Part shown: positions 2,547-57,760 of the stretch, one piece after another
Numbering within the stretch: the stretch's first letter is position 1
How the letters are laid out: every line of letters starts with the position of its first letter
Assembly (NCBI GenBank): GCA_964360585.1
Contig: CAYHXC010000002.1
Coordinates: 5,641 to 69,640, forward strand
From: an uncultured Candidatus Saccharibacteria bacterium
GTDB taxonomy: Bacteria > Patescibacteriota > Minisyncoccia > UBA6257 > 2-01-FULL-56-20
Direction of reading: 5' to 3'
Length of the DNA stretch: 64,000 nt
Translations under genes and position numbers: made by a program
Notes under the pieces: generated by a model
Databases searched by the model: none
Seen by the model: only the letters and a program-made list of their open reading frames with translations
What the model was told of the DNA's origin: nothing

Positions 2547-2939
2547 TTAGTGTCCCTTATTGTCCTCACTACCGTCAAGCTGAACAGGCTTACCCGAAGG
2601 AAAAGGAACATTCTCAGTAGAAACATTTTTCCATCTTCCTGATTCAACCGCTTGTCGTACGGCGGCCAGAGGATCTTCACGGAATGCCTGGCTCAGATGT
2701 TTCTCATCGTACCAAAGTGTATGTCCATCCGGAAATTCTTGGAATATTTCTTTCGTTACTCCATTACCGTCGAGCTCAAGAGTGCTTTTTATTTGAGTCG
2801 CAAGATCTTCAAAAACAACTCGTTCCAACCGACCGGTCGCTTGGTTAATCATGTGTGTGATCTTTATGCCTTCTTCGATTTTCATCAGATAGCGCCAGTG
2901 ACGCTCTTTCGGTTCACTCGGCTGTTCAAAAGGATTCAT
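2547..2939 (-). CDS. hypothetical protein
   Basis: 130-aa ORF with coding-like composition and no recognised motif. Confidence 0.5.
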   Translation of the reverse strand: MNPFEQPSEPKERHWRYLMKIEEGIKITHMINQATGRLERVVFEDLATQIKSTLELDGNGVTKEIFQEFPDGHTLWYDEKHLSQAFREDPLAAVRQAVESGRWKNVSTENVPFPSGKPVQLDGSEDNKGH

Positions 2940-6870: not shown

Positions 6871-8031
6871 TTAGCGAATTTGGGCGCCAAACTCGGTTTT
6901 CGATTTTTCCTCAAGCGCCTTATGAAGCACGTCTACCTCTTCATTCGTCAATGTTCGATCACTACTGCGATAGATAACACGATAGGCATAACTCTTTTTA
7001 TCGGCGCCAAATTTCTCCGCGTTTTCATACTCATCAATCAACTCCACTTGCTCCACCAGATCACCCGCCACGTCGCGAACAAGATCAAAGTAATTATTCG
7101 GCGCAAATGTTTTTGGCACGACGAAAGAAATATCGCGAGTCACCGGCGGATACTTACTCACCTCCTGGAACTTCGTTCCCATCGTGAGCTGCTTCGTCAC
7201 CCGCTCGTCTTTGGACCAGAGAAGCCGAATATCCGGCAGTTCCATGCTACTAATAGCGAGCCGGTCCAAGCCGAATCCAAAGGCCCAACCGTTGTAGCCT
7301 TCGAGACCGAAGTTTTTCAAAACACTCTTTTTCGGCATTCCCCCGCCAAGCAACTCAATCCACTGGCCATTAATCTGAATCTCTACTTCGAGCGACGGAT
7401 CGGTATAAGGAAATGTATCCGGATTAAAACGATACACCGTCGACTCACCGAAAATTCCTTTTACAATCTGACTCAACACATTTTTAAGATCATCCAACAC
7501 CATCATTCCCTGGCTATCAGGCTGGAGATACAAACCACCGAACTGATGGAAGATGTTCATATGGCGACGATCGATCTCGTCCTTGCGATAGACCTTGCCG
7601 TAACAAACCACACCGAGCGGTTCCTGTTTGGCAATCTTTGCTTTGATCTCGGGAAGATTTAAATAGTAGTACCACATGACGGTGTCATGCGTACGCAAAA
7701 TATTTTTCGGATCGGCATAGTAGGTATCCGAAGCGCTTCGCGCCGGGTGGTCCGGAGCAAAGTCGAACAGATCAAAACTAACATCGACCGGCACAATCTC
7801 CGGAATAATGATGTTGTCAAAGTTCGCAAGCGCCGGAACCCGCTTTACCGATTCCACAATTTCGTGGAGCGGACTTGTCGTCGTGCGCGACAGATCGTCC
7901 ATCGCCAAGTACCGCTTAATCCGTCCGGCCTCGGCGTCAGTGCGCGGCTCGAGCGTCTTCCGAACCTGGTTTTCGTTGTCTCGATCAATCGTATATTCGG
8001 CTGACTGGGTAAGGGGCGAAGTGAAATCCAT
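6871..8031 (-). CDS. pheS: phenylalanine--tRNA ligase alpha subunit
   Basis: Carries the class II aaRS core (FPYTDPSLEVEI, GWAFGFGLDRLA) and ends ...SKTEFGAQIR. Confidence 0.95.
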   Translation of the reverse strand: MDFTSPLTQSAEYTIDRDNENQVRKTLEPRTDAEAGRIKRYLAMDDLSRTTTSPLHEIVESVKRVPALANFDNIIIPEIVPVDVSFDLFDFAPDHPARSASDTYYADPKNILRTHDTVMWYYYLNLPEIKAKIAKQEPLGVVCYGKVYRKDEIDRRHMNIFHQFGGLYLQPDSQGMMVLDDLKNVLSQIVKGIFGESTVYRFNPDTFPYTDPSLEVEIQINGQWIELLGGGMPKKSVLKNFGLEGYNGWAFGFGLDRLAISSMELPDIRLLWSKDERVTKQLTMGTKFQEVSKYPPVTRDISFVVPKTFAPNNYFDLVRDVAGDLVEQVELIDEYENAEKFGADKKSYAYRVIYRSSDRTLTNEEVDVLHKALEEKSKTEFGAQIR

Positions 8032-8145
8032 CCCGTTAGAAGCAGATCGCGATCAACGCATCCACACAATTATGTAATTTCAGGTTCGACATTTCATTAA
8101 AAAGCCCAGGGAAGCCAACTAAGCGATCGCGGCTTCTAACGGGAT
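8027..8145. promoter_or_regulatory. long-range inverted repeat (cccgttagaagc-gatcgcg ... cgatcgcggcttctaacggg) abutting the pheS start codon
   Basis: On the pheS mRNA, ...cttctaacgggATG lies directly before the start codon. It is complementary to a segment about 100 nt upstream. Confidence 0.5.
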
Positions 8146-8216
8146 CCATGGTTTTGATTGTAATCAAAGCAAGCCGCGAAAACAAACTTTTTACGTCGGG
8201 AGTAATTGACCGCCTC

Positions 8217-10259
8217 TTACTGGGTCTTCAGATTAAAACACGCCCGAAATATGTCTAAAGATTCCCCAGGTTTTTGGAGACAGCGGATTCCTTGCTTCGC
8301 ATAACCATTCTTTAAAGAAAACGAGAGGGCGTTGGTAAAAGATTTCTCCGCTCCACTTCGGTCTCCTATGCCAACGTGAGCCAGTCCTAAACGCACCCAC
8401 AGATCGGCCACATCTTTGCGATTCTCATCTTTATACGGATTAATCCAAGCGATTGATCGAAAGGCCTCCGGTGTGTGCTCGACTACGATTGGCTCGAGAA
8501 AATCAATGATGGCTTGGTAGTTCTTTTCTTCAAGATATAGATTGGAAAGCTCGCGGTAGGCAGAAAAAAGCATGAAATGGTCGTGGTCCGTGGCGGTCAT
8601 AAAATCAGTTTCAGCTGCCGCCAAATCTCCCTCCAACTTACGAGCCTGTCCGCGTAGATAGAAAAGATAGGGATCCTTCGGTCGTGTCCTCAAGGCTTCC
8701 GTAATTTCTTGGAACGCCCGCAATCGATACAGAACTCTCTCTTTTTCATCTGGCACGCCAGAGGCCAGCCGCAGAGAAAGAATAGCCAAGTCGCGGTGGT
8801 AGAGCGGATTCCCGGCATCGCTCCGCACAGCCGCGTCGTACTTTTCGTAGGCCGCACGCATATCACCTTCCGCCAGCGCCATTGAAGCCTCGGTAAAATG
8901 AGCTTCGGCAAGAACACTCATACATCCAAAAATGAGCGCGATGAAACTGAAAACGATCACGAAAAGATTGAAGATAAACGAAAACTGCGTTTTATCTTTT
9001 TTATTTTCCGAGGAAAGATAGAGACGTAACACAATTCCAGCAACAATAAAGAAAAGGAAAACATCGGCCGGAAATATCCAGTCGGCATTAACCATGTTTT
9101 GAAATACGAGAGCCAGAAAACTGCCGACGACCACGTAGAGCATCTGTTCTTCGTGAAGTGAATGATGATTTCTGTTTTTTGTTACCGAAAAAACCATCAC
9201 GAGCAAAGCCGCGAGGAAAAGAACCAGGACCACTCCTCCAAAAATCCCTAACTCCACGAACCCGCGAGCGAGAATATTGTGCGGATCGGTGGTATAGAAC
9301 GTCAGACGATCACGGTACTCGGTCATGGCATCGCCGAAACTGCCCCAACCGACACCGAAGAGTGGACTATACGAAAATATGCGCGCTGACTGATAGAGAT
9401 ACTCAAGGCGGGCAGTCAGTCCGTTTTCCGAAGCGCTTTCCTCTTTAAAAATATCGGTTGGTTGGATCACGCTCGTCCCCGAAGCAACGCTTTGGGGATG
9501 GTTCTTAAACTGAAACGCGGCCGTAGCGAGGAGAATGCTGACCGCCATCAGTAAGAAAAGCGTTGCGCTGCGCCGCCAGATTTTTGAGAACGGCCAGCGG
9601 AGCAAAAACATTGTGATAAGAAACGATCCCAGGAAAGCCAGCGCCGCGCCGCGGGCAAACGTAAAGAAGAGGGTACAAAAAAGAAAAATATTTATGGCAG
9701 CATACCACCACTTTCGGGACTGCTTCGATTCATAGAAAAGAAAACTAGTCGCAAAAAAAAGTGACGGGAGCATAAAGCCGGCAAAAGCATTTTGTTGATA
9801 GAAAACTGATCCTAAGCGAAAGAAAGGATGGGCGCCAAAAAATATGTACAAGCCATAGAGCGAGAAAAGTATCGTGCCCCACAGTAGCCAGGAGAAAAAA
9901 CGCTCAATCTTCGCGAACTCCTTGATAATCGAAGGTGTTTTTATAAATACAATAAAAGCGGAAAAGAATATAAGGAATAACCGCGCTGTGGTATACCGGT
10001 CAAACGAAAAAAATCCCGAGATAAAAATGGAAACAAGAAAGAGAATACACGAGAAAAATACTGTTTTATAAAGACGGCCTCCCAAGAAAACCTCTTCTCG
10101 AAAAAAAAGTACGAGAAGAGTCACAAGCGTAAAAATCATAGCTTGCGCCATCGGTTCCATTCCGCCCATAAAAACGGTCGGCAAAAGAATGAGGGCGACG
10201 ATGGCCACAAAACCAACGTCTTCTTTTGACCACGCCGCCCATAATTTTAAAAAATTCAT
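8217..10259 (-). CDS. polytopic membrane protein, O-antigen-ligase-like (Wzy_C-type) with C-terminal TPR repeats
   Basis: 680-aa ORF with about 12 TM helices followed by a TPR-like C-terminal region. It is paralogous in architecture to 58277..60502. Confidence 0.55.
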   Translation of the reverse strand: MNFLKLWAAWSKEDVGFVAIVALILLPTVFMGGMEPMAQAMIFTLVTLLVLFFREEVFLGGRLYKTVFFSCILFLVSIFISGFFSFDRYTTARLFLIFFSAFIVFIKTPSIIKEFAKIERFFSWLLWGTILFSLYGLYIFFGAHPFFRLGSVFYQQNAFAGFMLPSLFFATSFLFYESKQSRKWWYAAINIFLFCTLFFTFARGAALAFLGSFLITMFLLRWPFSKIWRRSATLFLLMAVSILLATAAFQFKNHPQSVASGTSVIQPTDIFKEESASENGLTARLEYLYQSARIFSYSPLFGVGWGSFGDAMTEYRDRLTFYTTDPHNILARGFVELGIFGGVVLVLFLAALLVMVFSVTKNRNHHSLHEEQMLYVVVGSFLALVFQNMVNADWIFPADVFLFFIVAGIVLRLYLSSENKKDKTQFSFIFNLFVIVFSFIALIFGCMSVLAEAHFTEASMALAEGDMRAAYEKYDAAVRSDAGNPLYHRDLAILSLRLASGVPDEKERVLYRLRAFQEITEALRTRPKDPYLFYLRGQARKLEGDLAAAETDFMTATDHDHFMLFSAYRELSNLYLEEKNYQAIIDFLEPIVVEHTPEAFRSIAWINPYKDENRKDVADLWVRLGLAHVGIGDRSGAEKSFTNALSFSLKNGYAKQGIRCLQKPGESLDIFRACFNLKTQ

Positions 10260-10505
10260 CCCGTTAGAGATAGATCCCGTTTAGAAACAGATCACGATCG
10301 AATAGTTTCTTTACGATATTCCCATTATTGACTATCGACTTTCGAGACCTAGTAGTTTGTGTCATAGAAAGAGTGATCGTGGTTTCTAACGGGATAGGAA
10401 ACGGCTAGGTTTCCGTTTAGACCAAGCACCTGTGTGATTATCATATTTCATTATTATCGGAAACGGTTCTCGAATAACTTTCTGGGAAATCTCTAACGGG
10501 ATTCA
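10257..10505. promoter_or_regulatory. 5' leader with nested cccgttaga / tctaacggg inverted repeats abutting the start codon of the 8217..10259 gene
   Basis: The motif tctctaacggg+ATG is on the coding strand. At least three complementary copies lie upstream (10257-10290, 10364-10400, 10485-10500). Confidence 0.45.
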
Positions 10506-11594
10506 TTAGTACGCGCCCCGGCCCAAAATGATCGCTGGTATAGTTTTCAACATAATGACAAGATCCATGAGAAATGACTGGTGATGAATGTAGTAGAAAT
10601 CATACTCCAAGTTCTCGGAGAGCGGAATGTCTTTTCGTCCGAGAATTTGCCATAGGCCAGTAATACCCGGTTTTACTGATAATCTCATCTTTTGCCATTC
10701 ATTATGTTGTACCACTAAAAATGGCATTTCCGGCCGCGGACCGACAATACTCATCTCGCCTCGAAGCACGTTCCACAGTTGGGGCAGTTCGTCCAAACTA
10801 TACCGCCGCAGAAAACGGCCAATCCGTGTCACTCGCTCATCGCTTTCCCTTCTCGGTCCCGGAGCATAGAGCGGCGTAGACTGGTCCATTGTCCGGAACT
10901 TGTAGATAAAAAACTTTTTCCCATACTGCCCCACGCGCTCCTGTTTCAGGATTGCCCGACCCGGACCATCTTTCCGAATGAGAAGGGAGATCGCTACAAA
11001 TGCAGGCGAGAGGATAATCAATCCTCCTGCCGCCGCAACCAAATCCGCTGTTCTTTTTGAAACACGATAGAAGTGATGACTTATGCCGCCTCCTTGTAAT
11101 CCCTCGACAAGATCCAGTTCACGCGACGCATCCACTGTGCGCTCTATAAAACTCCTGGCATTTTGAAAAACCTCCTCACTCTCTTCTCGCTGAACTGACT
11201 GCGGCAGGAAACGAACAACAAACAATCTCCAGAAAAATGGCAGCACTATGCCGGGAACTAAAGCGTAGATGAGAAGTACGCGGGAGTAATTCGCCTGGGC
11301 CACAAAAGAGAAAACAATCACGCCAAAACTCCACCAGGAAAGCGCGCGAATGTAATCGGTAAGATGAGAAAGAGAAAACTGCGGCCGTTTTCTACCATAT
11401 AAATTGAAGATGGAAAATATTCCCAAAAAAGAAATGAGGTAAAAATAGAGGAAAGGAAAATAAAAGGAAAAATCTTGGAGCGGCGGAAAAAATGGCGTTC
11501 GCTTGCGAAGAGCGAACACAAACATGAAGCCGATAACCAGAAGAACACCGTCTCCGACCACAAAAAACAGTTGACGAAGTTTATTTCGCTTCAT
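10506..11594 (-). CDS. polyprenyl-phosphate sugar phosphotransferase (bacterial sugar transferase, WbaP/PglC family)
   Basis: Conserved C-terminal domain ...[49 protein letters not shown]-terminal TM helices are present. Confidence 0.85.
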
Positions 11595-23938: not shown

Positions 23939-24158
23939 TCTTCAAGAGAGAGTCCCCAATACCCCTCTTGGCCTAACCAGCTAAGCGGGGCATTTTTATC
24001 CCCCACCTAATTGGAAACAGCCGTTTTCAAACGGCGTGATTTTAACGCTATGGACGCCTCTTGATAAATACAATGATTTTCATATTTGCCGATGTTGATC
24101 GGATATTTTTTCAATTAGGTGCGGGGATTTATCGCGCAGTAGAAATTCGTGAGAGCCC

Positions 24159-26836: not shown

Positions 26837-27142
26837 ATGGCTTCTCCTATTAACCAAAAGGTACTGAAACACCTAGCGGGCCTGGCTCGGATCGAACTCT
26901 CCGAACGCGAGGAGAAAAAGCTCCTTGACGATCTCCGGTCTATCCTAGCCTATTTTGAAAAACTGGAAGAAGTCGACACGACCGACGTTCCGGCCATGAA
27001 CGGCGGCACCACGCTCCAAAATATCTTTCGCGAAGATAGCGAACGAATCGATACGCAAAAACAGCATGGCGTCGAGAGCTTTCCCGAAGAAGTCGGTGGT
27101 TTTTTGAAAGTTCCCTCTGTTTTCAATCATGATTCCCGTTAG
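26837..27142 (+). CDS. gatC: Asp-tRNA(Asn)/Glu-tRNA(Gln) amidotransferase subunit C
   Basis: Sequence VLKHLAGLARIELSEREEKKLLDDLRSILAYFEKLEEVDTTDV is a typical GatC. Confidence 0.85.
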   Translation: MASPINQKVLKHLAGLARIELSEREEKKLLDDLRSILAYFEKLEEVDTTDVPAMNGGTTLQNIFREDSERIDTQKQHGVESFPEEVGGFLKVPSVFNHDSR

Positions 27143-27250
27143 AGATGCCCAGCTATGATTTACACAACTATTTTAGAACAAACATATCCCTTCAGAAAAA
27201 GCCGGTCAATTTAAACAACGGAAATAATATTTCCTATCTCTAACGGGATG
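27136..27250. promoter_or_regulatory. inverted repeat tcccgttagagat ... atctctaacggga flanking 90 nt; the right arm abuts the gatA ATG
   Basis: 13-bp perfect arms. The start codon of gatA follows the right arm immediately (tctctaacgggATG). Confidence 0.5.
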
Positions 27251-28720
27251 ATCAATCCTAAACAACTCACACTCGAGACATTTCACGACGGCCTCGTAAA
27301 AAAAGAGTTCTCCGCTCTTGAGGTAACTCAGCACTTTCTTTCCAGGATTAAAGATGCCGATAAAAAAATCGGCGCTTATTTAAGCCTGAACGAAGAAACG
27401 GCCATTCGTGACGCTGAGGCAGTCGATCTTAAGATCGCCAAAGAGGAATCGATCTCACCGCTTGCCGGCGCCCCACTCGCCATCAAGGACAATATTTTAA
27501 TCGAAGGACTGCCCTCCACCTCAGCCTCAAAAATTTTAGAACATTACACCGCCGCCTACGATGCTACGGTCATTAAAAAATTAAAAAATCAACAAGCTGT
27601 CTTTTTGGGAAAAACAAACTTGGATGAGTTTGCCATGGGCGCTTCAACCGAAAACTCGGCGTTGCAGTTAGCGCGCAACCCGCACGATCCCGAGCGCGTG
27701 CCCGGCGGATCATCGGGCGGTTCAGCCGCGGCGGTCGCCGGCGATATGGCTTTGGCGGCACTGGGATCAGATACGGGCGGATCAATTCGTGAGCCATCAG
27801 CATTTTGTGGCGTTGTTGGGTTAAAACCAACATACGGCGCGGTATCGCGCTATGGTTTAACAGCGATGGCTTCGAGTTTGGATCAGATCGGTCCGATTAC
27901 TAAAACGGTTCATGATGCGGCACTGCTTTTTTCAGAAATCTACGGACACGATGGCTACGACGCCACGAGCGCACCAATAACCTATAAAACAAAAGAGTTG
28001 CTCCAACCGAAATATGAAACAGTCACAAAATTAAAAATCGGTTTGCCCAAAGAATACTTTACTGACGGCGGCGTTGATCCAATTGTGCAAACTGCTTTAG
28101 AAAAATCTATCTTCGCCCTGAAGTCGATGAAGATCGAGTTCAAAGAAATTTCCTTACCGCACAGTCAGTACGCACCAGCCTGTTACTACATCATCGTTCC
28201 CGCCGAAGTCAGTTCGAACACTGCCCGCTTCGATGGCATTCGTTACGCTCGGTTAAAACAGGGCTTGAAAGAATCGGAATCATTGAGCGATCTGTACCGC
28301 AAACAGCGCGGTCTCGGTTTTGGCCCAGAAGTAAAACGCCGCATCATCCTCGGCACCTTCGTACTCTCCTCCGGTTACTACGATGCGTACTACGCCAAAG
28401 CCCAAAAAGTGCGGACACTCATCAAACAGGATTTTGATACTGCTTTTCAGGATGTCGATGTCATCTTCACTCCAGTCTATCCTTCCTTGCCATTCAAGAT
28501 TGGCGAAAAAGTTGCCGATCCTCTCGCGATGTATTTAGCCGACATCTTTACGATTCCGGTAAACCTGGCTGGTCTACCCGCCATCTCCATTCCTATTGAA
28601 AAACCGGGTACGCAGTATGATCCGCAGAATCTCCCTACTGGCTTCCAATTGATCGGGAAACCCTTTCATGAAGGGGATATCCTCGGCATAGGCCAGTATT
28701 ATGAGAAGCTAAATTCATAA
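27248..28720 (+). CDS. gatA: Asp-tRNA(Asn)/Glu-tRNA(Gln) amidotransferase subunit A (amidase)
   Basis: Carries the amidase signature GGSSGGSAAAVA. Confidence 0.95.
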   Translation: MINPKQLTLETFHDGLVKKEFSALEVTQHFLSRIKDADKKIGAYLSLNEETAIRDAEAVDLKIAKEESISPLAGAPLAIKDNILIEGLPSTSASKILEHYTAAYDATVIKKLKNQQAVFLGKTNLDEFAMGASTENSALQLARNPHDPERVPGGSSGGSAAAVAGDMALAALGSDTGGSIREPSAFCGVVGLKPTYGAVSRYGLTAMASSLDQIGPITKTVHDAALLFSEIYGHDGYDATSAPITYKTKELLQPKYETVTKLKIGLPKEYFTDGGVDPIVQTALEKSIFALKSMKIEFKEISLPHSQYAPACYYIIVPAEVSSNTARFDGIRYARLKQGLKESESLSDLYRKQRGLGFGPEVKRRIILGTFVLSSGYYDAYYAKAQKVRTLIKQDFDTAFQDVDVIFTPVYPSLPFKIGEKVADPLAMYLADIFTIPVNLAGLPAISIPIEKPGTQYDPQNLPTGFQLIGKPFHEGDILGIGQYYEKLNS

Positions 28721-37136: not shown

Positions 37137-37218
37137 GCAAACTTGGATTCGATACCTAGCTATTGTACGGAAAAGAGTGGAAAAAGCAACGCAACATATT
37201 CTCCCCTCCTATCACTAT

Positions 37219-37258
37219 TATATAAAACGATCGTTTTATATAATAGTGATAGTGTAAG
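37219..37258. repeat. 40-bp perfect palindrome (atcactattatataaaacgatcgttttatataatagtgat) at the 3' end of the 37260..37856 gene
   Basis: Centred on cgatcg. It shares the core ctattatataaaacgatcgttttatataatag with the copy at 37860..37895. Confidence 0.7.
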
Positions 37259-37259
37259 A

Positions 37260-37856
37260 CTAGATAAGGTGATGGAGAGCACCGGCACTTCCTACTTCAA
37301 AAATCTCGACGTGCTTGCCTAAACCTAGACAATATAAATCCTTAATCAATTCTTTAGGGATTTTTGTTTTGCCGAGCCAAACACTTTTTTGAATTTGTCT
37401 TAACCCCAGTTCGCGAAGAACAAGACGAAGCCAATCTCGCTTACGTCTGTCTTTTTCAGGTATATCGAAAGCAACGATAACTGGTTTACCAATCTTTTCT
37501 GCGTGGTAGTTGGCCAGTGGCAATTCTTCCTTTCGGAATCGCCGATAATCTTCTAAGCGCCTGCGTCCAGTTTTTGTTATAGTAAAGAACTTACCCTTTT
37601 CTTTTTCGTTTTCCGAAATCAAACCTGCCTGCTTCAAATAATAGAGCAGATTGTAGTATCGTTGTTTTTCGCTCGTAGTCTTTCGTAACTTCCTCCCTCG
37701 AGTCCTTCTCTCCTTTTGCACGATATTGGTCATCGCATTTAGTTTTTTGAACGAAGCACCATATCCTGCTCGTAAAAAGGCTTCGAAAAGATCAGTGCTT
37801 GTTACAGCCGCATCCTTCACCGCTTCAAGAATTCTAAAAGTGATATCTCCTCTCAT
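37260..37856 (-). CDS. winged-HTH regulator with Cas2/VapD-like C-terminal domain (PaaX-like architecture)
   Basis: The C-terminal segment VIVAFDIPEKDRRKRDWLRLVLRELGLRQIQKSVWLG resembles the Cas2 core. The N-terminal ~90 aa look like a wHTH. Confidence 0.5.
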   Translation of the reverse strand: MRGDITFRILEAVKDAAVTSTDLFEAFLRAGYGASFKKLNAMTNIVQKERRTRGRKLRKTTSEKQRYYNLLYYLKQAGLISENEKEKGKFFTITKTGRRRLEDYRRFRKEELPLANYHAEKIGKPVIVAFDIPEKDRRKRDWLRLVLRELGLRQIQKSVWLGKTKIPKELIKDLYCLGLGKHVEIFEVGSAGALHHLI

Positions 37857-37859
37857 GTT

Positions 37860-37895
37860 GCTATTATATCAAACGATCGTTTTATATAATAGCAA
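37860..37895. repeat. second copy of the ~36-bp palindrome, at the start codon/promoter side of the 37260..37856 gene
   Basis: Sequence gctattatatcaaacgatcgttttatataatagc. Confidence 0.7.
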
Positions 37896-37898
37896 CGA

Positions 37899-40074: not shown

Positions 40075-40166
40075 GAGCAGATTCAAGGCTTGGCCGAGTA
40101 CCGCAACCGAGATGTATTCAACATACACCGAGGGCGGAACGCAGGCCGTAACGCAGAATCTGCCCA
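40075..40166. ncRNA. copy A of a repeated structured element (conserved acaaggcttg..gagtaccg..cgagggcggaacgca..gtaacgcag framework with four covarying helices)
   Basis: Lies immediately 3' of the 40183..40695 gene. Pairings are P1 gcagattc/gaatctgc, P2 ggcc/ggcc, P3 atgtat/atacac and P4 ccgc/gcgg. Confidence 0.6.
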
Positions 40167-41695: not shown

Positions 41696-42376
41696 TTAAA
41701 GATCCGGGAGGAAACAGAGAAATCCTTGTCGCGAGGAAACGGTGGTCTGAATTTCGGTGAGATCATCGCGCACTCCTTGTTCGGATCGAGGACTGACGCC
41801 AAGGGCGATTGTAACACGCGGGGCGTGGTCGGGTGTGGCATCCGGATCGCCTACCGGACAGTTCCCTAGCTGTTCGAATCGAAGATAGCGAATAGCCACA
41901 TTTTCGGCCGTAACCGCTTCACCTCCTGGTGCGAGAAGGTCTGAAGCATTTAACCGCATGAGATTATTAGAAGCATCACGCCAATAGGTTATCCGCTGAC
42001 GTTTGGCATTCTGAAACTCCAAGCGACAGTCATCGCACACACCCGGCATGGGAGAAACAATAAAACCAACGCCGGTTCGAATTTCTCGCGCCATCTGTTC
42101 AATAGCCAAGCTGGCGTTACTATTCGCCGCGACGAGTGCTTGCACCTGCCGTTGTGCTCGCAAGGCTCCGACAAATGCTCCCACACCCACCGAAAATACC
42201 GTAGCAAAAAGTGCCACCGAAACTAACGTTTCTATGAGAGTGAACCCCCCCACCTCAGAACAACTAAAAAACTCAAATATATTTTTCTTCCAGAATGGAA
42301 TTTTGCTTTTCCCATCGTCTCTTGCATGAGGTGGGGGGGTGAACCCTTCACGGTTTTTGTAATCAATACGATTCAT
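41696..42376 (-). CDS. prepilin-type N-terminal cleavage/methylation domain protein (pseudopilin)
   Basis: Contains GGFTLIETLVSVALFATV, i.e. the G|FTLIE class III signal. Confidence 0.65.
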   Translation of the reverse strand: MNRIDYKNREGFTPPPHARDDGKSKIPFWKKNIFEFFSCSEVGGFTLIETLVSVALFATVFSVGVGAFVGALRAQRQVQALVAANSNASLAIEQMAREIRTGVGFIVSPMPGVCDDCRLEFQNAKRQRITYWRDASNNLMRLNASDLLAPGGEAVTAENVAIRYLRFEQLGNCPVGDPDATPDHAPRVTIALGVSPRSEQGVRDDLTEIQTTVSSRQGFLCFLPDL

Positions 42377-42939: not shown

Positions 42940-43581
42940 CTAATCTATAAAATTATACGCCACCTGGCCGCCTTGGCCGACGGTGATACGGATTCGGCCG
43001 CTGCCGTTTTTATTTTTTACGACAATCGAGCTACTACTCGCGCGCAATTTCGTACCATCCGGGGCGAAGAAGTAGATTTGGGGATCGGGCGGTCGGAAAA
43101 CAATATCCGCGGCCGTCGTCTCGCTCGCATCAAACACCACATTGCGCGATAAAACATACTCCCCTCGTTCGGCCACCACCCGATCATAGTTTGAGATGAT
43201 CGAAGTAGAGCTGCCGATATTGGCGCACAAAGGCACGGGAATACTGGGATCAGGTTGGAGTTTCTTGAGATACCGATTGAGACTGAACTTTCCCGGATCG
43301 GAAGCAAGATCAATTGAGAGACCGTGGGCGCAGGTTACGCGACTGACATCAGGATCACGATAGGCGGAGATGGCCAAAGATTTTGACCGCAAGATAACGT
43401 CTATAACCTTAGAAGCCTCGACGTAGAGGGTCACCTGATCATGGCCAATGCGGCTGAAAGACACGAGTGTGCCGGAGATAATCGCCATAATCGCGACTAC
43501 AACCAAAAGTTCGATCATGGTAAATCCTTCACGAGGGGTGAGGGTTAAGGGTAGAGGGTTAAGGGTAGATTTTTTAATCAT
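42940..43581 (-). CDS. prepilin-type protein with long Pro-rich leader
   Basis: Contains REGFTMIELLVVVAIMAIISG. The leader LNPLPLTLTP is encoded by a 14-bp tandem repeat. Confidence 0.7.
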   Translation of the reverse strand: MIKKSTLNPLPLTLTPREGFTMIELLVVVAIMAIISGTLVSFSRIGHDQVTLYVEASKVIDVILRSKSLAISAYRDPDVSRVTCAHGLSIDLASDPGKFSLNRYLKKLQPDPSIPVPLCANIGSSTSIISNYDRVVAERGEYVLSRNVVFDASETTAADIVFRPPDPQIYFFAPDGTKLRASSSSIVVKNKNGSGRIRITVGQGGQVAYNFID

Positions 43582-43946
43582 CTTTCTAGAATTTTTCCGT
43601 GACCTAACTTTTTCATCAGTACAGTAAGCATCTTTTGAATTTCTTCAATCAGATTTTTCGCCTCTCTAAAATCTTGCCCAGGATAAAGTTCTTCGGCAAT
43701 AATGATCTGAGTTTCTAACTCACCAGCCGAACCATTCGCCACACCTAAAAATTGAATATATTCTTTCCGATTTCTTCTTTTGTATCCTTCGGCAACATTT
43801 GAAGGAATAGAAACGGCACATCGCCTCATTTGGCTTGAAAGACTGTACAATTCACTTTTGGGAAATTGATCAGTAATGCGATAAATGACCTTCACTAATG
43901 CAACTCCTTTCTTCCAAACCTCCAGATCTTTAAACGAGATTAACAT
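43578..43946 (-). CDS. four-helix-bundle protein (23S rRNA intervening-sequence protein family)
   Basis: Contains DLEVWKKGVALVKVIYRITDQFPKSELYSLSSQMRRCAVSIPSNVAEG, the family signature. Confidence 0.7.
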   Translation of the reverse strand: MLISFKDLEVWKKGVALVKVIYRITDQFPKSELYSLSSQMRRCAVSIPSNVAEGYKRRNRKEYIQFLGVANGSAGELETQIIIAEELYPGQDFREAKNLIEEIQKMLTVLMKKLGHGKILER

Positions 43947-43991: not shown

Positions 43992-44849
43992 TTATAGGCG
44001 AAAGAGGTGAAAGTAGAAATCGAGAATCTGGAAGCCAAAAAGGAAGACGAGGACAGAAGATAAAACGAGAAATGGACCAAACGGCAGGAAATCTTTGCGT
44101 TTTTTCTGTCCGGCAAGGAGAAGGGGCAAGGCCCAGAACGTGCCAAGAATGAAAGCAAGCGGAATGAGAAGGCCGATATCCGGCCAGCCGAATAATAATC
44201 CCAAAGCCGCCCCGAGCTTCAGATCGCCGCCGCCCATCCCCCGTCCTCGCGAAAGAACAATGAGCACGAGGAAAAAGAGAAGTCCGGCCGCACAGCCAAG
44301 AGTATGGTCAAGCCAGATATTTGATCCAAAACGAAAGAGAAGCGCGTAGTGGCCGATAAATGTTTCGGTAAAGGCGGTGAATGTGTCAGCCTTGAGAAGA
44401 ATTAAGGGGAAAGCTAGGAAAAATAAAAAAATGTTCAGCTCATCCGGAATAATCCGGAGACGAAGATCGATGAGCGCCACGAGAAGCAGGGCGAGAAATG
44501 CCAGGATCCAAATAATAGGGGTTAGTGGGTAGGGGTTAGTGGGTAGGGAAGAGAAAACTCCCAATCGCCACGGCACCATGATGAAAACAAGTCCGGAAAG
44601 AATTTCAACGAGCGGGTATTGCAAACTCAAATGTTTTTTACAAGAACGACAAAGGCCGCCCTGCACCAGAAAGCTAAGAAGTGGAATGAGTTCATACCAC
44701 CGAAGCTGTTTCCCACAATGGGGACAGTGCGAGCGGCCTCCTAAAATATCGGAATGGAACAAAAAACGTTCTGGATCATACCGAAGCGCCACCACATTCA
44801 GAAAACTCCCGATCATCAATCCGAAGATGAAAAAAGGGAGGAAAGCCAT
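43992..44849 (-). CDS. pilD: prepilin peptidase (A24 family, with N-terminal zinc-finger)
   Basis: Carries CPHCGKQLRWYELIPLLSFL...CRSCKK and polytopic TM helices. Confidence 0.9.
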   Translation of the reverse strand: MAFLPFFIFGLMIGSFLNVVALRYDPERFLFHSDILGGRSHCPHCGKQLRWYELIPLLSFLVQGGLCRSCKKHLSLQYPLVEILSGLVFIMVPWRLGVFSSLPTNPYPLTPIIWILAFLALLLVALIDLRLRIIPDELNIFLFFLAFPLILLKADTFTAFTETFIGHYALLFRFGSNIWLDHTLGCAAGLLFFLVLIVLSRGRGMGGGDLKLGAALGLLFGWPDIGLLIPLAFILGTFWALPLLLAGQKKRKDFLPFGPFLVLSSVLVFLFGFQILDFYFHLFRL

Positions 44850-44858
44850 GCGCTTGAA

Positions 44859-45278
44859 CTAGAAAGTCAAACAGTAAACGTCGACAGCATCACAACTGAT
44901 ATCAGGACCAGCGCCACCATTACTCAAAGAGCCTCCGGTGCCAAAATGACTGCCATTTAAAGACGCACTCCGTTCCCCTTCTAATTTAGCTCCAAGCACA
45001 TACACATTACCGTCGCTCGTGTAATAGTATGGAGTGTCATTAGGATCATTCGGAATACGTAACATAGCGCCCAAATCACCCAAACTGGACGGATAAAGTC
45101 CATATCGGTTGAAGTATAATTGCAAACCAGTCTGGATCTGATGCAACTCGGCCGCTCGTCTGGTGTCTCGGCTCTGGTTCAGACTCGGCCGCAAGCCGAC
45201 TAAAACGATACCGGCCAAGATTGAGATGATCGCCACAACGATCAAAAGCTCGATGAGAGTAAAACCTTTTCGATTCAT
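44859..45278 (-). CDS. pilA: type IV pilin (major pilin candidate)
   Basis: Sequence MNRKGFTLIELLIVVAIISILAGIV is a canonical short leader with G|FTLIEL. Confidence 0.85.
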   Translation of the reverse strand: MNRKGFTLIELLIVVAIISILAGIVLVGLRPSLNQSRDTRRAAELHQIQTGLQLYFNRYGLYPSSLGDLGAMLRIPNDPNDTPYYYTSDGNVYVLGAKLEGERSASLNGSHFGTGGSLSNGGAGPDISCDAVDVYCLTF

Positions 45279-45297
45279 ATGTCTTTTTATACGTGTG

Positions 45298-45463
45298 CAG
45301 AGTCCATCTCAAAAATCCATTTCTATAACAATGACGAAATTTCCGGCTGCAAGCCACTCATCCCTCCTCTCCATAGCTACGGCTATGCTTCGTCGGGCTT
45401 CATGCCTTTCGCTCGGAACTTTAGTATGTTATGACGAAAGCGATTTTTGAGATGGACTCTAGC
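45298..45463. repeat. 19-bp perfect inverted repeat (agagtccatctcaaaaatc) bracketing a 123-bp segment, 20 bp upstream of the pilA start
   Basis: The left arm is at 45300-45318 and the right arm at 45443-45461. Internal direct repeats atgacgaaa sit next to each arm. Confidence 0.7.
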
Positions 45464-45510
45464 GAATCTCGACCTTTTTGTATATTTCCCATTCTACAAC
45501 TTTGAATTAT

Positions 45511-45609
45511 GAATGGCCATCGGCAAGGCTTGATTGAGTACCGTAACCGAGGTGTATTTAAAATACATCGAGGGCGGAACGCAAATCGTAACGCTGCAGA
45601 TGGCTATTC
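45511..45609. ncRNA. copy B of the repeated structured element
   Basis: Lies immediately 3' of pilC. Pairings are P1 ggccatc/gatggc, P2 gatt/aatc and P3 gtattt/aaatac. Confidence 0.6.
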
Positions 45610-45622
45610 ATAATTTCAAAGA

Positions 45623-46834
45623 CTACTGGAATGTAGAAACTAACTTGTAAAGAGGAATCAGGATTGATCCGAATAGAAGTCCGGTCAAAAGACCCAATCC
45701 CACCATCAGAACCGGCTGAATCAGCTCGGTCATGTTGTTAATTGTATCATCCAGCTCCCGACCGTACAAGGTAGCGATACGTGTGAATATCTCATCCACC
45801 TGTCCGGTAATCTCTCCGACGGCTAACATCTGCGGCACCAGTGTGGGAAAGTAGTCCGGCTGGCGCGCCATGGCTTTTGAAATCGTATCTCCTTGCCGCA
45901 CGGCATTACTAATATCACGAAGCAGTTCTTCATAGACAGCGTTATCCACAGTCTGACTCACAATCTCGAGCGTTTGCGCGACCGGCACGCCACCATGCAA
46001 AAGAATGGCGGCGTTATTCGAGATGCGGGTAATGACAAGCGGCGTATAAATCTTCCCCACAATCGGCAAGCGAATTTTCAGCTCATCAAATACCGCTTCG
46101 CCTTCCTTCGTCCGAGCATAATCAAGAATAGTCGCCATAATGACGACCAACGAAATGATGAGCGCGAGCCACCAGCGGCTCAAGAAATCACCGCTCGAGA
46201 GAAGTATTCGGGTGAAAAGCGGCAGGTCCACTTTAGCTTGCGCAAAGATCGGACCGATCTGCGGAAAAACAACAGTAATTAAAAGTACCGAAACACCGAT
46301 AAAAAGAAAGACAACGATAATGGGATACATCAGCGCCGATTTCACTTTACTCGTGATCACCAGTTCTTTTTCATAGTAGTCAGCCAAAAAAGCGGCCGCT
46401 TCGGCCAGGTTGCCCGTGACTTCCGAGGCGCGGATAAGACTGATAAAAAATTCAGAGAAGACACTGCTCTGCCGTTCCAGGGCCTGGGAAAAAGACAAAC
46501 CGGAGTTAATATCTTCGGCGACTAAGGTGACCGCTTCTTTCAGGGTTGTATTTTGAGTTTGCTGGACTAAATTCCGCAGGGCGTCGCCAAGCGGTAAGCG
46601 GGCATTTAAAAGAAGGGCCAGCTGACGACTGAAAATGACGAAGTCTTTTCTTCGCACCAGCGAGAAATAACTGGCCAGACGATCATACCAGTGAATCGAC
46701 TCGGCCGCTTCGAGCGTGAGGATGAAAAGATTGTGGCTGGCTAAAATACTGGCGGCGCTATCTTTCGTGCCAGCCTCAATAAAACCGACTTGCAGTTCTC
46801 CTTCGCGCGTTTTTGCTTGGTACTTATATTTCAT
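45623..46834 (-). CDS. pilC: type IV pilus assembly platform protein (GspF/PilC family)
   Basis: 403-aa ORF with two T2SSF-type repeats and three TM segments. Confidence 0.9.
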   Translation of the reverse strand: MKYKYQAKTREGELQVGFIEAGTKDSAASILASHNLFILTLEAAESIHWYDRLASYFSLVRRKDFVIFSRQLALLLNARLPLGDALRNLVQQTQNTTLKEAVTLVAEDINSGLSFSQALERQSSVFSEFFISLIRASEVTGNLAEAAAFLADYYEKELVITSKVKSALMYPIIVVFLFIGVSVLLITVVFPQIGPIFAQAKVDLPLFTRILLSSGDFLSRWWLALIISLVVIMATILDYARTKEGEAVFDELKIRLPIVGKIYTPLVITRISNNAAILLHGGVPVAQTLEIVSQTVDNAVYEELLRDISNAVRQGDTISKAMARQPDYFPTLVPQMLAVGEITGQVDEIFTRIATLYGRELDDTINNMTELIQPVLMVGLGLLTGLLFGSILIPLYKLVSTFQ

Positions 46835-46919
46835 GACTAGGGTTTAGGGTCGAGGGCTTAGGGTCGAGGGTCTTTGGTTCCAACTACACCCCATACCCTA
46901 ACCACTATCCCATGATTTT

Positions 46920-47996
46920 TTACATACGTTCGAGGAGGATTCGCAGCTCGGCAGGGTTTAAGGAGTAGAGTTCCGCGTTCTCCAGGGAAATTTCCTTGTT
47001 CTTTACCAGCGTCGCAAGCGAACGGTTCAAGGTGACCATCCCCTCCTGGACACTGGTTTCGATAACCAGATCAATCTGATAGATCTTTCGTTCGCGAATT
47101 AAGTTCCGAATAGCTGGGTTCACAATCATGATTTCATTCACGGGAATACGTCCGCCGGACAAACGCGGCACAAGACGCTGGGAAACGATCGCAACGAGCG
47201 TCGCCGCCAGCTGGGACATAGCCTGGGACTGTTGTTCCGGCGGGAAAGAATCGATGATACGGTCAATCGTCTGAGCGGCAGAGTTGGTGTGAAGCGTGGA
47301 AAAAACCAAGTGACCGGTTTCTGACGCGGTCATGGCCGTGGCGATCGAGGTGGCGTCACGCATTTCACCGATCATAACCACGTCCGGATCCTGACGGAGA
47401 ACGGTGCGCAGTCCGGCGCTGAAACTGGGAATGTCCGTCTCTACTTCTTTTTGCGAGATGATCGCCCGATCCTGGGCAAAAACATACTCGATCGGATCTT
47501 CAATGGTAATAATGTGATCGGTGCGGGTGTGGTTGATCTCGTCTAAGATGGCCGCGAGCGTGGTTGATTTTCCATGACCGGCCGGACCGACAACCAGAAC
47601 GAACCCTTGAGAGAGTTTAGAAAAATCGTGGAGAATCGGTGGCAAGGAAAGTTCTTCGAGCGTGCGGACGTGCGGCGGAATGAGACGCAAGGCAGCGGCC
47701 ATATAGCCACGCTGGAAGTAGACGTTGGCGCGAAAACGAGCCTTGTCTTCATAACTATAAGCAAAGTCCAGCTGGCGCTCGTCCACAAATCTTTTCTGCT
47801 GTTCAGGCACAAGGAGATTCATAATTAATCCTTGAGCCATCTCCGGCGTCACAATCTCCTCTTTCTGCAGGGGCACTAAAACCCCATCTAAACGAAGCGA
47901 CGGCCGGCGGCCGACGCTGATATGGAGGTCGGAAGCATTCTGCTTGGCGGTTGTTAAAAGGAGCTCGTCGAGTTTTGCTTTATAATCATCAGGCAT
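46920..47996 (-). CDS. pilT: twitching-motility retraction ATPase (PilT family)
   Basis: 358-aa ORF with Walker A GPAGHGKSTTLAAI and the Asp box and His box of the secretion ATPase family. Confidence 0.8.
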   Translation of the reverse strand: MPDDYKAKLDELLLTTAKQNASDLHISVGRRPSLRLDGVLVPLQKEEIVTPEMAQGLIMNLLVPEQQKRFVDERQLDFAYSYEDKARFRANVYFQRGYMAAALRLIPPHVRTLEELSLPPILHDFSKLSQGFVLVVGPAGHGKSTTLAAILDEINHTRTDHIITIEDPIEYVFAQDRAIISQKEVETDIPSFSAGLRTVLRQDPDVVMIGEMRDATSIATAMTASETGHLVFSTLHTNSAAQTIDRIIDSFPPEQQSQAMSQLAATLVAIVSQRLVPRLSGGRIPVNEIMIVNPAIRNLIRERKIYQIDLVIETSVQEGMVTLNRSLATLVKNKEISLENAELYSLNPAELRILLERM

Positions 47997-48206
47997 ATCA
48001 GGGTAGTAGAAGTTCGATATTAAAGATTCCTATTCGACAATTTGTTTTCCAGGCATGAAACACCTATCGAACTTTCACAACCTGGCATAAAAAAATTATA
48101 CCATATATATTGAACTACACCTGTTTTCCTGCTTCAGTTCAGAAATTATCAGATACAAGGCTGGGTTAAACACGCAACTGAACGGTATTTAGATACTCAT
48201 CTTTTC

Positions 48207-48340
48207 GATTCAGAAATGGACAGGTGCGAGGCAGAGCTAAGCTCAGCTTTGCTTGGCTGAGTATCGCAAGCGAATCGTACTCCTCGGTACGATGAGTGCG
48301 AAACGGAAGCCGTAACGATGCAAATGACCGTTTATGAATC
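48207..48340. ncRNA. copy E of the repeated structured element (most divergent)
   Basis: Lies immediately 3' of pilB. Pairings are P2 ggct/agcc, P3 tcgtac/gtacga and P4 tcgc/gcga, all compensatory changes relative to the other copies. Confidence 0.55.
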
Positions 48341-48348
48341 GAAAAAAC

Positions 48349-50163
48349 TCAAAACTCGGTGGTTTCGCGAAGCACATCTTCAAGCGACACCAGTCCCGCC
48401 AGCGCCTTCAAAACGCCATCCTGACGCATCGTCACCATCCCCTGTCGTTTGGCCTCGGCAATCAGTGTTTGCATGGTAAAACTGCCGCTAATCACGGCCT
48501 CAAGTTCCGGCATCATTCGGAAAACTTCGAAGATGGCCATCCGTCCGATCGTTCCCTTCCCCCGACAGACGTTACAGCCAGGCGCATGATAGACGGTATA
48601 GGGTTCTTTGTAGCTGGCCACCAGATCAGGCGATAGTCCGGCAACCGCTTTTTTGATAATCGTCTGGAGCTCTTTCGATCCTTCCTCCGCTTGTTTGCAG
48701 TTTTCACAGAGGCGCAAAGCCAGACGCTGGGCCACCATCAAGTTTAGCGAAGCCGGCAAAAGAAAGGAATCTATTTTCATATCTAATAAGCGCGGAATAA
48801 CGCTCACCGAATTATTGGTGTGGAGCGTGGACAAGACGACATGGCCAGTTAAAGCGGCGTGGACGGCTAAACCGGCAGTTTCAGTGTCGCGAATTTCACC
48901 GACCATAATCACATCCGGATCCTGACGGAGAATCTGGCGCAAGCCGGAAGCAAAATCATACCCAATCTCGGGATGGACCTGCGACTGATTGACGCCGGTC
49001 ACGAAATACTCGACGGGATCCTCAAGACTGACAATGTTCGCGCTTTCTTTGTTCAAGGCTTGGAGCAAGGCATAGAGCGAGGTGCTTTTTCCGGAACCGG
49101 TCGGACCAGTCACGAGCACCATGCCGAACGGCTTGGCCAGACCTTCCTTCACATATTCGGCATTTTTTCCCATGAGACCAAGCTCATCAAAACTTTTGAG
49201 ACCGGTCGTTGGATCCAAAACACGGATGGCTACCTTTTCACCGTGCGGTGTTGGAAATGTCGAAACGCGAAAGTCGATACTTCGATTTGAGACGGTCGTT
49301 CGAAACCGACCATCCTGGGGAATACGCGTCTCGTCAATTTTCAAATTGGAGATAACTTTGATACGCGAGATAACTGGCTGGCCAAGTTCCGGCGGCAGTG
49401 CCGCTTCCTCGCGCAGTTCGCCGTCAACGCGAAGACGGATACGAAGATAGTTTTGTTGCGGCTCGATATGAATATCCGAGGCGCCGCGAGCCACGGCTTC
49501 GCGAAACGTTTCGGCCACGATTCTGATAACCGGCCCATCCTCGGCACCACCCTTTCCCGCTTCGAGACTGATGACATCGCGTTCAGCCACCGATTTCAAA
49601 TTGAGCGACTTAATAGCCGACTCAATCTCGCTCTTGTAGGGCGAGTATTTCTGAAGCACCGCCTGCCAATCGCTCCAGGAAATGAGATAGACGCCGAGAT
49701 TCAGATGCGTCCGCCGGGCGATAAACTTGATCGCCTCCTGGGCTTTCAAGTCATCCGGATTGACCATACCCACCACCAGGAGATCATTTTGTTTTTCAAT
49801 CGGAATAACGCCGTAGGTTCTGACCGTCTCCTCGGGAAAAAGTTCGTAGAGTTCTTTCGTGATATCCTCTACCTTTACTTTTTTATAGGGAACTTTGAGC
49901 GCCTGGGCCTTGAGCTGGGCCAACTTACTGTCGTCAATAAGGCGACGCTCCACAATTACCGCCTCAACCGGCCGTCCAGAAAGTTCAACTTCGCGTTTCA
50001 ACGAAGCCAGCGTGACCTGGTCGAACAGATTGGCCGTCTCAATTTCCTTTAAAAACTTAGAGGATTCCATATAGTAGTAAGTATACTGCGAATTTCTAAA
50101 GGATGCAGTATGAAGGAAGTCTACAGTTCGTGAATAACAAGCTTTGGCCATTTCTTCTGCCAA
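48349..50163 (-). CDS. pilB: type IV pilus assembly ATPase (GspE/PilB family)
   Basis: 604-aa ORF with an N-terminal GSPII domain, Walker A GPTGSGKSTSLYA and a tetracysteine motif CENC...CNVC. Confidence 0.9.
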   Translation of the reverse strand: MAEEMAKACYSRTVDFLHTASFRNSQYTYYYMESSKFLKEIETANLFDQVTLASLKREVELSGRPVEAVIVERRLIDDSKLAQLKAQALKVPYKKVKVEDITKELYELFPEETVRTYGVIPIEKQNDLLVVGMVNPDDLKAQEAIKFIARRTHLNLGVYLISWSDWQAVLQKYSPYKSEIESAIKSLNLKSVAERDVISLEAGKGGAEDGPVIRIVAETFREAVARGASDIHIEPQQNYLRIRLRVDGELREEAALPPELGQPVISRIKVISNLKIDETRIPQDGRFRTTVSNRSIDFRVSTFPTPHGEKVAIRVLDPTTGLKSFDELGLMGKNAEYVKEGLAKPFGMVLVTGPTGSGKSTSLYALLQALNKESANIVSLEDPVEYFVTGVNQSQVHPEIGYDFASGLRQILRQDPDVIMVGEIRDTETAGLAVHAALTGHVVLSTLHTNNSVSVIPRLLDMKIDSFLLPASLNLMVAQRLALRLCENCKQAEEGSKELQTIIKKAVAGLSPDLVASYKEPYTVYHAPGCNVCRGKGTIGRMAIFEVFRMMPELEAVISGSFTMQTLIAEAKRQGMVTMRQDGVLKALAGLVSLEDVLRETTEF

Positions 50164-50699: not shown

Positions 50700-50809
50700 G
50701 TTTAAAAACGATGAGCTACAAGGCTTGGTCGAGTACCGCAAGGGAGCTGTATTAAGCATACAGCGACTGCGGCACGGAGACCGTAACGCAGTAGATCACG
50801 TTTTTAAAC
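50700..50809. ncRNA. copy C of the repeated structured element
   Basis: Lies immediately 3' of the 50815..51132 gene. Pairings are P2 ggtc/gacc and P3 ctgtat/atacag. Confidence 0.6.
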
Positions 50810-57345: not shown

Positions 57346-57650
57346 CCTTAAAACGCGAAATGCTTCGTTACGGCCTGCGCTCCGCCCTCACATAAATGTG
57401 AACTTCCGCCGAAGGCGGATCCTCCTCCGGAGGACGCTTACGGTGCTCGGCCAAGCCTCGCATTTCATCATTTTATGGCTAAAGTAAAATACACTATCCC
57501 TTCAACATAAAACACCCCGTCTATAGGGGTGTTTTGATTGTTGAATTAAATTCAGATCCAGAATTGTTGATTTTTGGATTTTCTACAAGGCGGCAGTGAG
57601 TACCGAAGCGAGACAGGGAGTTATCAACGGAACTTGATTCTCAAATTTTA

Positions 57651-57760
57651 TTGATAACGCGATGAAATACAAGGCTTGACCGAGTACCGCCCCGAGCAAT
57701 ATTGAAACATATTGTAAGGGCGGAACGCAGGTCGTAACGCAGTAGTTCGCGCGTTATCAA
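57651..57760. ncRNA. copy D of the repeated structured element
   Basis: Lies immediately 3' of hup. Pairings are P1 ttgataacgcg/cgcgttatcaa (11 bp), P2 gacc/ggtc, P3 caatat/atattg and P4 ccgcc/ggcgg. Confidence 0.6.

Follow-up and report, generated by a model that had tools for sequence, protein, structure and literature searches.

The hairpins of small palindromic repeats such as the Correia, ERIC, RUP and BOX elements are cut by RNase III or change the stability of the mRNA, and the elements themselves sometimes create promoters. Inverted repeats around a short segment upstream of a surface-appendage gene are also shared by invertible switches, among them fimS of E. coli, hin/hix of Salmonella and the invertons of gut Bacteroides; in these systems the interior is non-palindromic and promoter-bearing, both orientations occur and a dedicated recombinase is present, none of which was found for the element described here. 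This element lies directly upstream of a pilin gene in a 64-kb stretch of DNA (64,000 nucleotides, referred to below as the window), and exact protein matches place the population that carries it among the Parcubacteria-like Patescibacteria, as a MAG from Hainich groundwater well H51 that comes mostly from the 0.1 µm fraction. A literature search for MITEs or pilin-linked inverted repeats in Patescibacteria/CPR returned nothing relevant. Our preferred reading, which we put at a probability of about 0.6, is that the element is an orphan, MITE-like foldback insertion of 159-162 bp in the pilin leader of this one population.

Structure of the inverted repeat in the pilin leader

The 19-nt sequence AGAGTCCATCTCAAAAATC matched the 64-kb window exactly twice, once on the plus strand (the proximal arm) and once on the minus strand (the distal arm), and two or more matches were obtained in none of 100 dinucleotide-preserving shuffles, indicating that the arms are not random. 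This confirms the 19-bp perfect inverted repeat that the initial annotation had reported upstream of the pilin gene, as well as its distance of 20 bp from the proximal arm to the start codon, but the coordinates given there are shifted by one base, and its 123-nt spacer in fact measures 124 nt. A direct repeat had also been described internal to each arm, and ATGACGAAA is indeed present twice, but its placement is not symmetric, one copy lying 13 nt inside one arm and the other 2 nt inside the opposite arm. Among the 13 perfect inverted repeats of at least 13 nt within 400 nt in the window, the pilin-leader pair ranks second longest. The coordinates of these and the other features are collected in Table 1.

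Table 1 Positions of the pilin-leader element, its neighbouring genes and other hairpin insertions (window coordinates unless a contig is named)
Feature	Coordinates	Strand	Remarks
Prepilin peptidase gene	43992-44849		Downstream of pilin gene
Pilin gene, 139 aa	44859-45278	-	Prepilin leader MNRKG/FTLIEL; starts MNRKGFTLIELL; Pfam N_methyl
Block missing from relatives, 159 nt	45299-45457	-	Between native ...GATTCGCTAGA and A-rich 20 nt before ATG; comparison with L011, L012, L041
Proximal arm, 19-nt perfect inverted repeat	45299-45317	.	Pilin ATG 20 nt downstream of arm end
Interior, 124 nt, largely self-complementary	45318-45441	-	37 further Watson-Crick pairs, CGUA apical loop
Direct repeat ATGACGAAA, copy 1	45331-45339	+	Repeat listing
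Direct repeat ATGACGAAA, copy 2	45431-45439	+	Repeat listing
Distal arm, 19-nt perfect inverted repeat	45442-45460	.	Outer 3 nt (45458-45460) are native leader motif common to relatives
Native leader motif AAAAGGTCGAGATTCGCTAGA	45458-45478	-	Conserved upstream of pilin gene in L011, L012, L041
Sole promoter-like match in pilC-pilin spacer, TGGCCA-17-TAGAAT	45491-45519	-	Consensus match only
Second hairpin insertion (R1), right after pilC stop	45494-45622 (core 45516-45605)	+	Block includes one GTAG copy
pilC, T2SSF family, 403 aa	45623-46834	-	Upstream neighbour of pilin gene
pilT	46920-47996		Upstream of pilin gene
pilB	48349-50163		Upstream of pilin gene
R1 copies in window (n = 6)	40076-40165, 45516-45605, 48239-48329, 50711-50800, 57662-57751; 57359-57464	+ (first five); - (last)	Covariance model
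R1 copy in L029 (same genome)	2791-2880		Covariance model
R1 copy in relative L012	624-713		Covariance model
R1 ninth copy, relative L031	1351-1445		
E family, MITE-like	8024-8151, 10252-10508 (nested double copy), 27128-27254		Related ends at 2176 and 2273
C-rich-terminal-repeat element (CCCCCCACCTCA)	42237-42347, within ORF 41696-42376	-	8-bp duplication GGGTTCAC
Two further hairpins with similar ends (CCCCCACCTAAT)	24000-24125; L029 1446-1542		Ends like C-rich-terminal-repeat element

The whole 162 nt fold into one long imperfect hairpin, end to end, of about 57 pairs with the outer 19 perfect. The minus (pilin-sense) strand folds at -70.8 kcal/mol compared with -58 to -60 kcal/mol for the plus strand, and the fold with flanks scores z = -7.1 against dinucleotide shuffles. 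Because the pairing consists of 56 Watson-Crick pairs and only one G-U pair, the element is, at the DNA level, a degenerate palindrome; the interior alone, compared with its reverse complement, shows 66% identity, a value above that of all 200 shuffles. Three central internal loops, read from the sequence, are purine-purine on the minus strand (GAAG/AUGA, GA/GA and GAAG/GAGA). Their mismatches could form tandem sheared G-A pairs and are the sole hint of a strand-specific constraint, whether on RNA or on single-stranded DNA.

On the sense strand the stem is followed by GCACACGUAU. In the minimum-free-energy structure neither the AUG nor any of the preceding 20 nt is paired, and in the centroid only 3 nt of this stretch are. 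A GC/GC pairing with a bulged U seems to lengthen the stem, but this is ambiguous. No terminator-like site was found at the element in a search for intrinsic terminators. Rfam 15 returned only tRNAs over the whole window at the gathering score and nothing meaningful over 45200-45700 at E <= 10, and no ORF was called over the element in any of the six population contigs. Three candidate functions were considered and set aside. Hammerhead-like GAUGAG...GAAA strings in the interior were rejected by eye, as the essential C3 and U4 are absent and there is no Rfam ribozyme match; a 6S RNA was rejected for want of a central bubble and an Rfam match and for its absence from relatives; and a 12-codon micro-ORF after a GGAGG inside the element has the wrong spacing and was treated as chance.

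Neither strand of 45299-45460 gave a sigma-70-like promoter match (promoter types in Patescibacteria being poorly known). In the only promoter-like match of the pilC-pilin spacer, the -10 hexamer TAGAAT corresponds to the relatives' pilC stop TAG plus AAT, and the -35-like TGGCCA lies within an arm of the neighbouring R1 hairpin insertion. A promoter at this consensus match would put the whole element in the 5′ UTR. The pilC stop plus AAT reads TAGAAT in the window and in three relatives (L011, L012 and L041), and the R1 insertion duplicated GTAG, so that TAGAAT stays beside the pilin leader in the window. The R1 insertion may thereby have created or improved the candidate promoter, with its hairpin arm supplying the -35-like TGGCCA at a 17-nt spacing.

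Comparison with related pil loci and search for further copies

The orientation of the element was the same and its interior identical in all six distinct contigs of the population (L001-L006; L007-L009 are further views of three of these), which came from at least four H51 libraries, and the inverted form was found in none of the six; all of these are consensus assemblies, in which a rare flipped minority would not necessarily appear. The element is thus fixed in one orientation in every contig examined.

The pilC-pilin spacer measures 344 nt in the window as against 38-47 nt in seven related pil loci. It is 44 nt in L011 and L012 (PilC 88% and 86% identical, respectively) and 47 nt in the P0004 contig (PilC 86%), and it is 38 nt in L013/L014 and 40 nt in L015 (PilC 71% in both cases). 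L041, which has the closest pilin (65%), has a spacer of 44 nt, and the P0123 contig (pilin 62%) one of 47 nt. In L011, L012 and L041, the order is CAG TAG AAT A(n) AAGGTCGAGATTCGCTAGA, followed by 16-19 A-rich nt and the ATG; the leader motif is partly conserved, as AAAGGTCGAG, in L013 and L015. In the window, a block of 159 nt, running from 45457 down to 45299, separates GCTAGA from the A-rich 20 nt that lead to the ATG, and the outer three pairs of the 19-bp stem are formed by native AGA with inserted TCT. The extra spacer DNA represents two insertions, the pilin-leader element and a second, unrelated hairpin after the pilC stop. This alignment of filled and empty sites shows the element to be an insertion. 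Since the outgroups are without it, a gain in the window's lineage is the parsimonious reading.

A target-site duplication of 2-8 bp was sought at the element ends and none was found, the flanks ...GATTCGCT / GCACACG... containing no direct repeat. The native flank GATTCGCTAGAG resembles the terminal repeat GATTCCCGTTAGAG of the E family described below. No second copy was detected in the 64-kb window or the fetched loci (blastn-short, nhmmer --max) or in L029, a 6.3-kb contig extension; within the genome of the population itself, this search covered about 70 kb, or roughly 10% of the total. The exact arm gave seven matches in 185,579 species genomes, six in JGI metagenomes and one in IMG/VR, all of them isolated, in unrelated taxa and at the level expected by chance for a 19-mer. 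The matches in genomes and metagenomes were without the second arm or the interior, and the nhmmer similarity ended at the 19-mer. When 30 window ORFs of 192-1076 aa were compared with Pfam, no integrase, resolvase/invertase or transposase was identified, in agreement with the earlier remark that no recombinase is encoded nearby.

Several other features of the pil region were noted in passing. An 81-nt hairpin lies just upstream of pilT (48002-48082), the pilT-pilC spacer contains a tandem AGGGTCGAG...AGGGTCGAG at 46846-46868, and the pilB-pilT spacer is 352 nt in the window compared with 20-162 nt in relatives. A gene of the bAvd / 23S_rRNA_IVP four-helix-bundle type (43578-43946, minus strand) lies between the prepilin peptidase and pseudopilin genes, with no reverse transcriptase noticed nearby; in the relative L013 the pseudopilins directly follow the peptidase gene.

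Other hairpin insertions of the same genome

The genome around the element is unusually rich in other hairpin insertions, which fall into at least three other families, and some of them have classical terminal inverted repeats and target-site duplications. The R1 family was identified with a covariance model built from four copies, with two internal loops in its conserved core. Its members are hairpins of 110-150 nt with the core AAGGCUUG-nnn-GAGUACCG ... CGGAACGNA-nnn-CGUAACG and an AGUA/GAA loop-E-like internal loop; the stems carry compensatory changes and the outer arms are variable. All nine copies run antisense to the gene next upstream, and most of them sit shortly behind a stop codon. 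The family has no match in Rfam, and of eight matches to its core pattern in viral contigs, none was confirmed by the R1 model. The copy after pilC is flanked on both sides by GTAG (45623-45626 and 45494-45497) and has an empty site in L011, L012 and L041. A related hairpin occupies the same spot in L031 (PilC 86%), and this R1 insertion is therefore older than the pilin-leader element. Membership of the pilin-leader element in R1 was considered and rejected, as a search with the R1 model (filters off, both strands, E <= 10) gave no match overlapping 45299-45460.

The MITE-like E family has conserved terminal repeats (ATCCCGTTAGAG / CTCTAACGGGAT). Its flanking 5-6-bp direct repeat, ATGRAT, takes in the start codons of three genes, namely pheS, gatA and one for a Wzy-like O-antigen ligase, and in consequence the A and U of the start codon are paired within a perfect 14-bp stem. 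The C-rich-terminal-repeat element adds 33 codons (99 nt) in frame to a pseudopilin's prepilin leader, which reads MNRIDYKNREGFT[33 aa]...GGFT/LIETL; as the insertion leaves the G/FTLIE cleavage motif intact, prepilin peptidase may simply remove the lengthened leader.

Perfect inverted repeats of at least 12 nt are essentially missing from the pil regions of the relatives, and the window's lineage has therefore undergone a burst of foldback insertions. The pilin-leader element matches the pattern of the genome's hairpin insertions in its size, its perfect outer stem and its empty sites.

Two further regions of the window contain inverted repeats of other kinds. Related palindromes of 44 nt (37209-37252) and about 40 nt (37857-37896), with the core CTATTATATAAAACGA|TCGTTTTATATAATAG, lie on either side of a small gene (37260-37856) that has a PaaX/Cas2-like domain, and could be operators or bidirectional terminators. 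An 18-nt inverted repeat at 2043-2364 encloses 286 nt in which a minus-strand tRNA gene (2196-2266) is accompanied by several further T-arm-like repeats and by ends like those of the E family, and this region may be a rearranged tRNA cluster or a set of nested insertions.

Origin of the element and its place among known systems

The empty sites and the genomic context argue for mobility, and we infer that the element came in as a mobile but non-autonomous one, of MITE-like or foldback type, mobilised by an enzyme that would be encoded elsewhere or since lost. A MITE had been offered as an alternative to a switch in the initial annotation. That proposal fits in so far as the element is an inserted foldback with terminal inverted repeats and empty sites, small and non-coding, but it has no target-site duplication, and scattered identical copies were not found in about 70 kb. 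The single copy found, the missing duplication and the lack of a transposase among the 30 ORFs scanned all count against a mobile element, and a purely selfish palindrome does not predict the purine-purine loops on the sense strand.

Because the element sits between the conserved leader motif and the ATG, any pilin transcript would have to contain it. The pilin RNA would then bear a hairpin of about -71 kcal/mol, as modelled, that stops 20 nt short of the AUG and leaves the start region single-stranded. A long double-stranded RNA stem of this kind would be a natural RNase III substrate or 5′ stabiliser. A hairpin controlling translation had been suggested as well; the hairpin is indeed in the 5′ leader of the pilin gene, but the start region is unpaired and direct translational occlusion is not indicated. 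Given that the predicted hairpin leaves the start region single-stranded, the likeliest consequence of the insertion would be none at all, or altered mRNA processing or stability, and not ON/OFF switching by inversion.

The strongest competing explanation is that the hairpin, whatever its origin, is a selected cis-acting RNA element that provides the pil operon transcript with punctuation, either a site for RNase III processing or a 5′ stabiliser, and so uncouples pilin mRNA abundance from that of pilB, pilT and pilC, for which papBA processing and the 5′ stem-loops of ompA are the analogues. Its position in an obligatory leader at 20 nt from an unpaired start region, the greater stability of the sense-strand fold, the purine-purine character of all three central loops, where tandem sheared G-A pairs could form, and the identity of the sequence across all population contigs are consistent with such a role. 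We nevertheless regard it as unlikely, since the hairpin is missing from every related lineage examined, so that the pil operon works without it, the element has neither a homologue in which covariation could be followed nor an Rfam family, and its almost purely Watson-Crick pairing is what would be expected for a DNA palindrome.

A broader version would take the pilin-leader element and the genome's other hairpins together as an undescribed set of structured foldback elements that spread in one Patescibacteria lineage and were co-opted as operon RNA punctuation, the pilin-leader copy acting in processing or stabilisation and thereby setting how much pilin mRNA there is relative to mRNA for the assembly machinery. 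The purine-purine loops on the sense strand, the uniform antisense orientation of R1 and the compensatory changes in its stems are the reasons for entertaining this version, which we hold to be somewhat less likely still.

About equally doubtful is a one-off palindromic insertion made by replication or repair, through template switching or hairpin-primed synthesis, with no transposable element involved. Such an event would agree with the single copy found, with the lack of a target-site duplication and of a transposase among the 30 ORFs, and with the outer 3 bp of the stem joining inserted DNA to native flank. However, no donor sequence was found in the 64-kb window or the 6.3-kb extension, and the several families of hairpin insertions with transposon-like hallmarks in the genome make a mobile origin simpler.

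The leading proposal of the initial annotation, an invertible promoter switch in which inversion of the 124 bp between the 19-bp repeats by a site-specific recombinase would turn pilin on or off, is very improbable, because of its four hallmarks only the perfect inverted repeats around a short segment directly upstream of the pilin gene were found (even if a distant invertase is possible, the window being a minor part of the genome), whereas the six consensus assemblies have a single orientation, the element contains no promoter-like site on either strand, the 30 window ORFs include no recombinase, an interior so nearly self-complementary would be changed little by flipping, the element is missing from all seven related loci, and similar hairpins bordered by such repeats occur at many places in the genome, among them downstream of unrelated genes, where nothing would be gained from a switch.

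For the pilin gene, an orphan foldback insertion is a mostly deflationary result, as this ultra-small groundwater bacterium offers no evidence of phase variation, and what is seen is only a recent insertion in a leader. It is a modest example of how small palindromic elements land freely in, and are tolerated by, a reduced Patescibacteria genome, in places that include the pilin leader, positions right at start codons and, in frame, a cleaved prepilin signal peptide. The more interesting lead is probably R1, a structured multi-copy element that is uncatalogued and may deserve a study of its own.

Within its own genome, a close counterpart of the pilin-leader element is R1. It is likewise a long hairpin insertion with empty sites in relatives, its outer stem of 17-21 bp is perfect or nearly so, and it lies in the same spacer. 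R1 differs in its conserved core, its many copies and its constant orientation with respect to genes. Classical MITEs share with the element its terminal inverted repeats, small size, lack of coding capacity and presence/absence polymorphism between relatives; they differ in having target-site duplications, further copies and a partner transposase, none of which was found here. The Correia elements (CREE) of Neisseria, ERIC/IRU, RUP and BOX are, like the pilin-leader element, small (about 100-160 bp), non-coding and intergenic near genes, with long terminal inverted repeats. They are also co-transcribed and able to form a long RNA hairpin, as the pilin-leader element would be if it is transcribed as its position implies. 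They differ from it in occurring as tens to hundreds of near-identical copies, compared with the one copy found, and share no sequence similarity with it, and Correia elements have in addition a TA target duplication that the pilin-leader element does not. By analogy, we would place the element among the small palindromic insertion elements, as an orphan that probably works most like the transcribed palindromic repeats of the Correia, ERIC or RUP type.
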